Assembly: GCA_900768815.1 (NCBI GenBank)
Contig: CAAGEE010000002.1
Location: 176,468-240,467 of the forward strand
Length of the DNA stretch: 64,000 bases
Direction of reading: 5' to 3'
Source: Bacilli bacterium
GTDB taxonomy: Bacteria > Bacillota_I > Bacilli_A > RF39 > UBA660
In this document: piece after piece, positions 3,776-6,173 of the stretch
How the letters are laid out: the number at the start of each line of letters is the position of its first letter
How positions within the stretch are numbered: position 1 is the first letter of the stretch
Notes under the pieces: model-generated
The model's database searches: none
What the model saw: only the letters and a program-made list of their open reading frames with translations
Told to the model about the DNA's origin: nothing
Made by a program: the position numbers and the translations under genes

Positions 3776-4915
3776 ATGGGAGAAGCTTTTTTAGATAATA
3801 CTGAAAGTGAGAACGTTTTAAAAATATCAATTCCTATTAGTGAATTGTTTAACAAGCCAAATGATGTGATAGACAAAATCTGTTTACAGGCAAAACAGAC
3901 AAGTAAGAAAGTGTGTATTATACCAACTTTTTCAGCGTCAGAGAAAGAAGATGAATTTTATGAGAGAATTAGATTTGAAAAGTTCTTTCATGAAAATTAT
4001 GATAAATTAGCAGAATATAAGGATAAAGTTTATTTGCAATTTATTGCTGCTAGTGTGAGTAAAACTAGGAAGTTTGGGTGGGGTATTATTCCTGAATCTT
4101 CCGAATGGATTTATGAATATGCATCTTTAAAAAGAATAAAAGAAGTTAATGATAAAATAGAAATGTTTACTGAAGATATAAAAAAATCTAATCTTTCTCC
4201 ATTCGAAAAAACCATGGCCGTATATTTTATTTCTACAAAATTTATTAAAAGTACTAAAACCACCCAATCTATTGCTAATCCTTTTTCAAGTGTTATGCAT
4301 ATATTAAGTGATGATGAAGATAGTTATAAAATCATATGCACAGGGTATACGGATTTATTTTCTAGAATGGCTTATGAATGTGATATTCATACTCAAGAAA
4401 TGGGAATAACACATATTGATAATAATAATATTTCTTCTGATAGTCACTCTGTTGCGGTTGTTGATCTTGATGATGAAAAATATAGAATTCATGGTAGGTT
4501 TATTTGCGATGTTAGAGCGGATAGTGATGTTTTTTTTGGTTCTGGTAATGATAATATTAGTAATAATGTTAATAGTGGTTTTCTTACGGCGTTTTGCTTA
4601 CCTTTTTCTGATTATGATAATTTATCTGAAATGTTATTTAAAAGCGTGTCATTTTACTATATTAATAATATAAGAATTGAAGAAAAAGGTGATAATTATT
4701 TTTCTAATGAAAGAATAGATCTTTTGAATATTTATGATGCTTTAAAAAAGGTAGATGAATTTGTATATGGTACTATGTCTGATGCAATAGATGCAAGAGA
4801 GAGAAAAACTTTAGCTGATACTTTATATATAAGGAATCTTATTGATAAAAATAAACCTGATGTAAAAGATAATGTGGATGTTAGTGAGGTTAGTGCTGAT
4901 AGCAGTCATAAATAA
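3776..4915 (+). CDS. Hypothetical cytoplasmic protein, paralogue A; C-terminal region resembles a transglutaminase-like Cys/His/Asp core
   Basis: It starts MGEAFLDN and shares collinear similarity with the next ORF. The motif KIICTGYTDLFSRMAYECDIH ... HSVAVVDLDDEKY..GRFICD resembles the G-C-x-x-F...H-A-W-V-E-V...D core. There is no signal peptide. Confidence 0.35.
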   Translation: MGEAFLDNTESENVLKISIPISELFNKPNDVIDKICLQAKQTSKKVCIIPTFSASEKEDEFYERIRFEKFFHENYDKLAEYKDKVYLQFIAASVSKTRKFGWGIIPESSEWIYEYASLKRIKEVNDKIEMFTEDIKKSNLSPFEKTMAVYFISTKFIKSTKTTQSIANPFSSVMHILSDDEDSYKIICTGYTDLFSRMAYECDIHTQEMGITHIDNNNISSDSHSVAVVDLDDEKYRIHGRFICDVRADSDVFFGSGNDNISNNVNSGFLTAFCLPFSDYDNLSEMLFKSVSFYYINNIRIEEKGDNYFSNERIDLLNIYDALKKVDEFVYGTMSDAIDARERKTLADTLYIRNLIDKNKPDVKDNVDVSEVSADSSHK

Positions 4916-4982
4916 TTACCTAGGTATATGAAAGTAGTAATTGAACTAAAATAAATTTGAATAAGAAAGGAAAGCGTTTGTT

Positions 4983-6173
4983 ATGGGAGAAGCCTTTTTA
5001 GATAATGCTGAAATTGATAATGCTTTAAAAATATCAATTCCTATTAATGAACTACTTTGCAGTCCAACTCAAATAGTAGATGCAATTAGTTCTGATATGA
5101 AAGATATAGATAAGTTATGCATTACACCAGTTTTTTTATCAGAGTCAGAAAAAGATGATGAATATTATGAGAGAATTAGATTTGAAAAGTTCTTTTGTGA
5201 AAATTATGATAAGTTGGCCGACTATAAGGATAAAGTTTATTTACAAGTTAGAACTGCTAGTAGAATGAAAAAAAATAAGCTAATTTGGGAGTATGAGTAT
5301 GTTTCTTTAGAAAGATTAAAAGAAATTAATGATAAAATAGAAATGTTTACTGACAATATAAAAAAATCAAGTCTTTCTCCGTTTGAGAAGACTATGGCCT
5401 TATATTTTATTTCTACACATTTCATAGAAAGTACAGATGATTTAGTTGGTCCTAAAATTGTCTCAAGTGTTATGCATATTTTGAGTGATGATAAAGATAA
5501 TTATAAAATAGTATGTGCGGGGTATACGGATTTATTTTCTAGAATGGCTTATGAATGTGATATTCATACCAAAGAAATGGGAATCAAACTTGTTGACGTT
5601 GATAATAATTGTTTTGGTGGACATTCTGCTGTGGTAGTTGATTTAGATGATGACAAATATGGAATACATGGTAGTTTTATTTGTGATATCAGAGCGGAAT
5701 CTGATTATATGTTCTCTAGAAGAAATAAAGAGAGTAATATAATGCCAGACGATACTCTTAATTTGTTTTGCTTAACTTATTCTGATTTTAATACTTATAT
5801 ACATTCTTTGTATAGTTCTAAGTATCCTGAATATAGTATTAATAATAACAAAATTATTGGAGAAGAAAAAACATATCTTTCTGATGAGAGAATTGATATT
5901 ATGACTATTTCTGATGCTTTCAAAAGAGTAGATGAATTTAGATATGGCTGTGAATCCGATAAAATTACTGATGAACGTAATTTATCATTAGCTTTATTGT
6001 TAACTGTAAGAGGTGACCTTGATAAGTTAAAAGAACTTTATGGGCAATGCCAAGTATTTGAAATGTATAATCATCTTAAATCATCTATTGATACAGCCGA
6101 TGAATTAAGTCAAATGATGGTTTCAGAAGAGGCAAATAAAACAAGAGTAAGTGATAGCAGTAGTCATAAGTAA
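4983..6173 (+). CDS. Hypothetical cytoplasmic protein, paralogue B (tandem duplicate of 3776..4915)
   Basis: It also starts MGEAFLDN. It has the conserved blocks ERIRFEKFF.ENYDKL, SPFEKTMA.YFIST and VCAGYTDLFSRMAYECDIH...HSAVVVDLDDDKY. A ribosome-binding site, aaggaaag, lies upstream. Confidence 0.35.
   Translation: MGEAFLDNAEIDNALKISIPINELLCSPTQIVDAISSDMKDIDKLCITPVFLSESEKDDEYYERIRFEKFFCENYDKLADYKDKVYLQVRTASRMKKNKLIWEYEYVSLERLKEINDKIEMFTDNIKKSSLSPFEKTMALYFISTHFIESTDDLVGPKIVSSVMHILSDDKDNYKIVCAGYTDLFSRMAYECDIHTKEMGIKLVDVDNNCFGGHSAVVVDLDDDKYGIHGSFICDIRAESDYMFSRRNKESNIMPDDTLNLFCLTYSDFNTYIHSLYSSKYPEYSINNNKIIGEEKTYLSDERIDIMTISDAFKRVDEFRYGCESDKITDERNLSLALLLTVRGDLDKLKELYGQCQVFEMYNHLKSSIDTADELSQMMVSEEANKTRVSDSSSHK

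Follow-up and report, generated by a model that had tools for sequence, protein, structure and literature searches.

A strain-variable tandem array of predicted transglutaminase-fold proteins downstream of xerD-deoB in uncultured gut Bacilli

What do two adjacent paralogous genes behind the core genes xerD and deoB encode, and why does the slot that holds them differ so strongly between otherwise near-identical strains? These questions are raised by a stretch of 64,000 nucleotides from a Bacilli bacterium (GTDB lineage Bacillota_I; Bacilli_A; RF39; UBA660; GenBank assembly GCA_900768815.1, contig CAAGEE010000002.1, positions 176,468 to 240,467). From here on, "window" refers to this whole stretch, A and B are the two paralogue genes, L-numbers designate retrieved loci, and P-numbers designate relative proteins. 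Fold prediction, a conserved Cys-His-Asp triad, and transitive homology support that A and B encode divergent members of the transglutaminase-like (papain-clan) superfamily, and the slot is hypervariable, with one to three copies, mosaic alleles, pseudogenes, and scars. The pattern of variation suggests that the array may serve in intracellular conflict.

RESULTS

A and B are tandem paralogues without an assigned family

An earlier note, made from the sequence alone, had described two adjacent paralogous open reading frames (ORFs) of 379 and 396 amino acids (aa) that both begin with MGEAFLDN. This description was exact:

3776 to 4915, plus strand: gene A, array slot 1, 379 aa, signal-less protein with a predicted transglutaminase fold
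4983 to 6173, plus strand: gene B, array slot 2, 396 aa, paralogue of A with the same invariant motifs

The two proteins are 56% identical across 364 aa (BLASTP, E 1e-129), which is far beyond chance, and their DNA is alignable in three blocks only, at 78 to 82%. All of the motifs listed previously were found again, i.e., IICTGYTDLFSRMAYECDIH / IVCAGYTDLFSRMAYECDIH, HSVAVVDLDDEKYRIHGRFICD / HSAVVVDLDDDKYGIHGSFICD, ERIRFEKFF.ENYDKLA.YKDKVYLQ, and SPFEKTMA.YFIST. There are no further copies of A or B in the 64-kb window.

Searches of Pfam, NCBIfam, PHROGs, and PADLOC gave no family assignment for A or B, and Pfam PF01841 (Transglut_core) was not matched even at E <= 10. When A and the profile of its close family were searched against PDB sequences, only chance matches were returned (cytochrome b and troponin T). 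A word-indexed search of 5.8 billion proteins recovered only 60 homologue clusters, none with a Pfam domain or a name, and an exhaustive HMMER profile search of 1.84 billion representatives gave 12 proteins at E < 1e-30, 102 at E < 1e-10, and 814 at E < 1e-3, with the weaker matches spanning mostly profile positions ~100 to 250. The relatives, ~60 close clusters and ~800 distant proteins, come mostly from human-gut metagenomes, and none is annotated.

Distant relatives and structure prediction support a transglutaminase-like fold

The link to transglutaminases comes via distant relatives. The 460-aa protein of L005 aligns with the family profile with an hhalign probability of 97.7% (E 2.5e-12) and passes PF01841 with 27.3 bits (gathering threshold, 23). 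PF01841 is also matched by 29 of 60 distant representatives, and a profile built from these 60 proteins identified PDB entry 9crn at E 3e-7, with no other PDB match below E 0.4. In the alignment with 9crn, the Cys, His, and Asp residues are in register (SVCNGYA / FAHAW / GDP).

An AlphaFold2 model of A, based on a 30-sequence alignment, has a pTM of 0.82 and a pLDDT of >=70 in 292 of 379 residues. The model predicts a papain/transglutaminase-type fold and shows the canonical arrangement of the Cys, His, and Asp elements, with the Cys at a helix N terminus and the His and Asp on the following strands. Superpositions on transglutaminases imply that the three residues are spatially adjacent. Structural matches include axonemal transglutaminase-like proteins, band 4.2, vasohibins, a Streptococcus suis TGase, LapG, PNGase, and protein-glutaminases. 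The earlier reading of A and B as transglutaminase-like proteins, for which structure prediction had been proposed as a check, is thus supported by the profile link to a Transglut_core homologue, the model, and the invariant Cys, His, and Asp. Concerning membership of the superfamily, A and B do not match PF01841 directly; they are linked to it by transitive/profile homology and have the predicted core fold and the conserved Cys-His-Asp.

The predicted layout of A and the candidate active-site codons of both genes are as follows:

3776 to 4126, plus strand: A residues 1-117, N-terminal accessory module, with a variable beta-alpha-beta unit (1-59), conserved helices (60-84), and a variable beta-hairpin (85-117)
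4127 to 4678, plus strand: A residues 118-301, transglutaminase-like core, with LSPFEK helices, catalytic helix, and His and Asp strands
4337 to 4339, plus strand: A Cys188 codon (TGC), predicted nucleophile, before helix 191-201; aligns with the TglA Cys in SVCNGYA
4445 to 4447, plus strand: A His224 codon (CAC), predicted general base, on strand 221-233; aligns with the TglA His in FAHAW
4508 to 4510, plus strand: A Asp245 codon (GAT), predicted third triad member, at the end of strand 238-244; aligns with TglA GDP and the wider-family DPT motif
5514 to 5516, plus strand: B Cys178 codon, equivalent to A C188
5622 to 5624, plus strand: B His214 codon, equivalent to A H224
5685 to 5687, plus strand: B Asp235 codon, equivalent to A D245

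TglA is the Streptococcus pyogenes protein of PDB entry 9crn. Cys188, His224, and Asp245, together with Gly190, Asp233, and Tyr236, are kept in all 88 alignable relatives (88/88), and none of the 60 distant representatives departs from the Cys, His, and Asp. Additional invariant motifs are specific to the family (a D-x-K-Y hairpin, C244 beside the Asp, R247, D251, and C274).

The first ~190 aa had been considered unrecognizable. This was overstated, as residues ~118-187 belong to a Transglut_core-type domain; for residues ~1-85 the assessment stands, in that this beta-alpha-beta unit with its helices gives no specific match and generic beta-alpha-beta matches only. By way of the L005 protein, the LSPFEK helices (~118-157) correspond to the start of the Pfam Transglut_core model. 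Residues ~60-117 (helices and beta-hairpin) are shared with TglA. In the model, the stretch that leads up to the catalytic Cys (residues 158-184) is a loop of low confidence.

The A/B proteins are acidic (pI 4.5 to 4.9) with a maximum 19-residue hydropathy of <=1.3 (maximum KD19 of 0.57 and 1.01 for A and B, respectively), lack a hydrophobic N terminus, and contain no signal- or transmembrane-like segment. By these measures, A and B are predicted soluble proteins without an export signal, and a signal-like N terminus was detected in only 1 of 146 wider relatives.

The slot is hypervariable between otherwise near-identical strains

The earlier note had proposed that related genomes be checked for genes after deoB. 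The slot following xerD-deoB turned out to be occupied in every related genome retrieved, all of which are metagenome-assembled genomes (MAGs) of uncultured Bacilli or gut metagenome contigs. The flanking proteins of conspecific genomes are highly similar to those of the window:

MgsA: 97% identity to the window
XerD: 95-96% identity
DeoB: 96-99.7% identity
DUF1540 protein: 93-97% identity
255-aa helix-turn-helix (HTH) protein: 99.6% identity
MnmA: 95% identity

Across those same genomes, the array proteins are only 33 to 87% identical to each other. In a sliding comparison with the conspecific locus L007, DNA identity is 90 to 100% through xerD-deoB, drops exactly at the deoB stop codon, forms a 20 to 90% mosaic within A and B that includes an island of 88 to 95% at 4825 to 4942, and recovers from ~6125. 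The two conserved segments are:

4825 to 4942, plus strand: internal anchor, consisting of the A C-terminal tail (..VSADSSHK*) and the first part of the A-B spacer; 88-95% identical to L007, with flanking coding sequence at 20-70%
6125 to 6290, plus strand: 3' anchor, consisting of the B C-terminal tail (..SSSHK*) and downstream DNA including the terminator, where identity recovers

Junction modules of the type at 4825 to 4942 recur in other arrays, and a 113-bp stretch of the 3' anchor is 94.7% identical in L014 and L017.

Copy number varies as well. L014 has three intact copies, the window, L007 to L010, and L018 have two, L017 has one, and L015 and L016 each have one intact and one disrupted copy; every genome retains one or more intact copies whose triad is complete. 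Several alleles are mosaics: P0005 is 93% A-like at residues 1-59 and 93% B-like in its last 44 residues, and P0011 and P0012 combine a 95% B-like N terminus with an unrelated C terminus. Remnants of former copies were also found. The L007 spacer holds a 52-bp piece of B-type coding sequence for the N terminus (90% identity to window positions 5056 to 5106, E 1.6e-15), the decayed start of an L018_1-type gene remains between deoB and the single copy in L017, and L014_3 and L017_1 have a second, unused "..VSVGSSHK*" tail just past the stop codon. Based on these scars, remnants, and mosaics, we suggest that the conserved termini (MGEAFLDN.. and ..SSHK) and the spacers bearing ribosome-binding sites (RBSs) act as recombination anchors. 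The core is constant, and the N-terminal unit, the hairpin, the loops surrounding the core, and the C-terminal helices are swapped between alleles through recombination at conserved anchors. Strong divergence of the family gene is also seen in an independent distant lineage, in which the L022 and L027 copies are 45.5% identical and their neighbors 66 to 91%.

Array alleles are older than the surrounding genome

Using Nei-Gojobori estimates, we obtained dN/dS ratios of 0.03 to 0.12 for deoB and 0.37 to 0.62 for array genes; one very close array pair gave 2.39, a value resting on few changes. Between the window and L014, dS is 0.012 in deoB and 0.54 in the slot-1 genes (~45-fold). Along one array gene pair, pS ranges from 0 to 0.8, and pN is at least as high as pS in several array-gene segments. 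The dS excess and the swings in pS argue that the alleles are far more ancient than the genome around them and have been exchanged piecewise, and this exchange keeps old, highly divergent alleles within one species. The pattern fits balancing or diversifying selection with recombination.

Organization and context of the locus

The context given in the earlier note, xerD-deoB upstream on the same strand and a convergent Cys-rich ORF downstream, is correct:

1675 to 2574, plus strand: XerD-type tyrosine recombinase, upstream of A
2577 to 3746, plus strand: phosphopentomutase-type metalloenzyme (deoB), upstream of A
3747 to 3775, plus strand: 29-bp deoB-A spacer with the RBS GAAGAAGGAAG, in which the terminator scan finds no terminator
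6309 to 6536, minus strand: convergent Cys-rich DUF1540 gene, 75 aa (Pfam E 3.9e-6, above threshold)

Each array gene is preceded by a purine-rich RBS 8 to 12 nt 5' of its start (GAAGAAGGAAG for A and AAGAAAGGAAAG for B). The terminator scan found no terminator between deoB, A, and B; the sole one in this stretch is a strong bidirectional intrinsic hairpin at 6262 to 6288, common to B and the DUF1540 gene. Because the 29-bp spacer lacks a terminator, A is probably cotranscribed with xerD-deoB. A scan for sigma-70 promoters performed at chance level (22 found versus 23.5 expected), inspection of the upstream regions by eye revealed no convincing sporulation-sigma motif, and the window has no Rfam matches. 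The DUF1540 gene is a conserved part of the array's context.

Both paralogues and most alleles elsewhere have near-identical ends, MGEAFLDN (3776 to 3799 and 4983 to 5006) and ..SSHK* (4889 to 4915 and 6147 to 6173), next to highly variable sequence, and the C-terminal tail of the paralogues is predicted to be disordered. Conservation of the ends may reflect a role at the DNA level, as a recombination anchor or as the promoter/RBS of the next gene, rather than at the protein level.

DISCUSSION

Proposed function of the array and alternative explanations

The explanation that best joins these observations, to which we give about an even chance, is a birth-and-death tandem array of transglutaminase-fold thiol enzymes with a variable periphery that determines specificity in an intracellular conflict. 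A and B would be two intact members of an array of one to three genes that evolves by gene birth and death and sits at a constant position behind xerD-deoB in the chromosomes of a genus of uncultured, low-GC Bacilli from the human gut. In the predicted triads Cys188-His224-Asp245 (A) and Cys178-His214-Asp235 (B), a thiolate activated by the His, itself oriented by the Asp, would attack the carbonyl of an amide in a protein or peptide, the amide being that of a Gln side chain or the peptide bond itself. The resulting thioester intermediate would be resolved by water, giving deamidation or proteolysis, or by an amine, giving cross-linking. The variable periphery would set target or partner specificity; such a periphery around a constant core fits diversifying or frequency-dependent selection, which an intracellular function in conflict would be expected to bring about, e.g., recognizing or modifying phage or competitor proteins. 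A more specific version, which we regard as rather unlikely as it stands, is a previously unrecognized, single-protein intracellular effector of variable specificity with a transglutaminase fold at a core slot, used against phages or in strain competition, in which the invariant center would modify or cleave invader proteins and recombining modules under frequency-dependent selection would choose the invader.

Several observations weigh against a conflict function. The overall dN/dS is below 1, so that positive selection is not demonstrated, and relaxed constraint together with recombination could yield similar dN/dS ratios. The slot is filled in every genome examined, unlike typical patchy defense islands, and no conserved operon partner was found across lineages. 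Neither A nor B matches a PADLOC-DB v2 defense model at E <= 10; phage or plasmid relatives were found neither by tblastn nor in IMG/VR, BFVD gave no viral structural match at E <= 0.001, and all PHROGs matches had E >= 0.015. It is the evolutionary pattern that points to conflict, and we hold this role weakly. Among the roles considered, we rank conflict first, followed by neutral birth and death, a spore-surface function, a small-molecule transferase, and a scaffold.

The array could instead encode a cytoplasmic cysteine hydrolase or amidase of an ordinary, dispensable kind that is weakly constrained and was shaped by neutral birth and death and homologous recombination without any conflict role. 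An array dN/dS of 0.4 to 0.6, pseudogenized or deleted copies in L015, L016, and L017, a copy number of 1 to 3, probable cotranscription with housekeeping genes, and the lack of defense or mobile-element hallmarks in our searches are all compatible with this explanation. We nevertheless consider it unlikely, because a ~45-fold dS excess over deoB indicates anciently diverged alleles that were maintained or imported, which drift within one species explains poorly. Moreover, no genome lacks an intact copy with all three triad residues, pN reaches or exceeds pS in several segments, and the excess divergence is repeated in an independent lineage.

A spore-surface enzyme, made in the mother cell and placed into the coat or exosporium to cross-link or process coat proteins, possibly including the DUF1540 protein, with exposure to phages or the immune system driving diversity, has a smaller chance still. 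It has a precedent in coat cross-linking by the transglutaminase Tgl of Bacillus subtilis, which is of a different family, and would account for array proteins that lack export signals yet vary like surface antigens. Near the array, a SpoIIM-family gene lies at a distance of 3 kb; PF01944 is also present outside spore-formers. The adjacency to DUF1540 is kept across the genus, and the convergent DUF1540 neighbor shares its domain with CdeA, a Cys-rich protein of the C. difficile exosporium (PMC7677010); the DUF1540 family co-occurs with endospore formers (PMC2955703). However, A/B are convergent with the DUF1540 gene rather than cotranscribed with it, and this gene is itself conserved at 93 to 97%; the 29-bp deoB-A gap, which holds no terminator, suggests vegetative coexpression, and a sporulation-type promoter could not be called. 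Pfam scans detected no further sporulation genes among 20 other large ORFs of the window, and distant relatives reside in unrelated contexts.

Two further explanations have little to recommend them. It is improbable that A and B are small-molecule acyl- or amidotransferases tied to nucleoside catabolism, using the fold as arylamine N-acetyltransferases (NATs) do and coexpressed with phosphopentomutase. The position directly downstream of deoB with no terminator would suit such enzymes, and the distant relatives P0115 and P0133 are encoded two genes from a pyrimidine-nucleoside phosphorylase, but the association with deo genes is absent in L005, L006, L024, and P0163, within-species hypervariability is not expected of metabolic enzymes, and the best structural matches are protein-acting transglutaminase-like proteins rather than NATs. 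As a general association, the link to nucleoside metabolism was rejected, since it recurs in one other lineage and not elsewhere. Even less probable is a noncatalytic binding or scaffold protein that has kept only the fold, as in Rad4/XPC and band 4.2, because the Cys, His, and Asp are invariant in all 88 relatives while the remaining sequence falls to 33% identity, the opposite of what is seen in pseudoenzymes.

Comparison with known systems

The nearest characterized structure is that of S. pyogenes TglA (PDB 9crn), a transglutaminase domain-containing lipoprotein of PF01841 with an identity to A/B of ~11%. TglA is a 410-aa protein with a lipobox (..LMTVGMSAC), and this lipoprotein signal implies that it is exported, whereas A and B have no signal. 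TglA also differs in matching PF01841 directly and in having GDPVFD where A and B have ICDVR. We know of no tandem array or hypervariability for TglA. Our literature searches, including the PDB code, found nothing on the function of S. pyogenes TglA; one match concerned the 3-thiaglutamate TglA peptide, which is unrelated. The wider PF01841 superfamily (bacterial transglutaminase-like cysteine proteinases, LapG, PNGase, vasohibins, protein-glutaminase, and animal TG2/TG3/FXIII) has the same predicted fold and Cys-His-Asp order as A/B, which differ from it in their family-specific invariant motifs and in the extra N-terminal alpha/beta unit without a specific match.

B. subtilis Tgl is a signal-less cross-linking enzyme that acts at the spore surface and is a possible functional analogue of A/B only. 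It is of a different family, and none of our searches found a sequence or structural match between it and A/B. A/B are not members of the Bacillus Tgl family or of any PADLOC defense family.

In its evolution, the array resembles hypervariable specificity loci, such as polymorphic toxin/immunity cassettes (PMC3482391) and type I restriction specificity genes, in having anchors that flank variable cassettes, mosaics, varying copy number, remnants, and old alleles. It differs from them in lacking a trafficking/secretion domain, a separate immunity gene, silent cassettes in the window, and restriction-modification partners; in the array, several modules of the predicted enzyme vary, whereas its catalytic core does not change. 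A polymorphic toxin system was considered and rejected, as there is no Pfam domain or signal and variation runs along the whole protein, not the C terminus only. Besides the conserved DUF1540 gene, there is no small ORF between or after A and B that would be a candidate immunity gene. We found no report of this organization in the transglutaminase-like superfamily, i.e., of tandem genes at one constant core-genome position that are hypervariable in sequence and copy number but keep their catalytic core unchanged.

With the fold assigned, an orphan family of ~60 close clusters and ~800 distant relatives can be named. A frozen core with a strain-shuffled remainder at a fixed core slot, and with alleles older than the chromosome, is a signature usual for molecules of recognition conflict. 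If the array does function in conflict, it would provide a simple one-gene model for an enzyme specificity diversified by cassette recombination and would be useful as a marker for typing strains of an uncultured gut lineage. Should its members be effectors, the ~800 mostly signal-less and also fast-diverging relatives would make up a large unexplored effector family. If a conflict function is wrong, the locus nonetheless illustrates cleanly how tandem enzyme genes evolve by birth and death.

Additional observations on the neighborhood

An AT-rich spacer at 6540 to 7280 (GC, 16 to 19%), between the DUF1540 gene and the gene for the 255-aa HTH protein, is a site of insertion: an insert of ~4.8 kb is present there in several conspecific and sister strains (L008, 9767 to 14660; L009, 9767 to 14663; L011, 9815 to 14998; L018, 5749 to 9511). 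The insert carries genes for a rolling-circle replication protein (Rep_OBD, PF01719) and for an HTH_3 regulator, together with ~8 small ORFs, and looks like an integrated small plasmid or single-stranded DNA (ssDNA)-phage-like element. The window is without this insert and has, at an indel relative to L007, a 61-nt direct repeat (6597 to 6657 and 6689 to 6749) with 79% identity. The 255-aa protein itself (7279 to 8046, minus strand), with an N-terminal HTH, has sub-threshold Pfam matches only and no family. It is the most conserved gene product of the neighborhood, with 99.6% identity among conspecific loci and 92 to 95% in the sister species.

In L022 (6001 to 7666) and L027 (5001 to 6690), a family gene (348 to 349 aa) is followed by a gene for a polytopic membrane protein of 194 to 198 aa, which is absent from the lineage of the window. 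The membrane protein diverges faster (34% identity) than the family gene (45.5%), next to an adjacent PYNP at 91%, and could be a coevolving partner of the family gene. In L024 (7193 to 8641), the gene that comes after that of the distant family member P0092, in the same orientation, encodes a 482-aa protein whose GxGxxS...VIK motif resembles the glycine loop of protein kinases and which has no Pfam match on record.

The remainder of the window encodes a chloramphenicol-acetyltransferase-family protein (39798 to 40448), an Mbeg1-like protein (41324 to 42361), a Fic/DOC protein (48315 to 49514), and several MacB/FtsX-type ABC exporters (33162 to 37897 and 51808 to 54270). Finally, L004 (CAVKYO010000020.1), a contig titled Acidaminococcus fermentans, has the order MgsA-XerD-DeoB-family-DUF1540-HTH-MnmA-SpoIIM with 74 to 92% protein identity to the window. 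Based on this shared synteny and identity, the contig was probably misbinned and comes from the same Bacilli genus.

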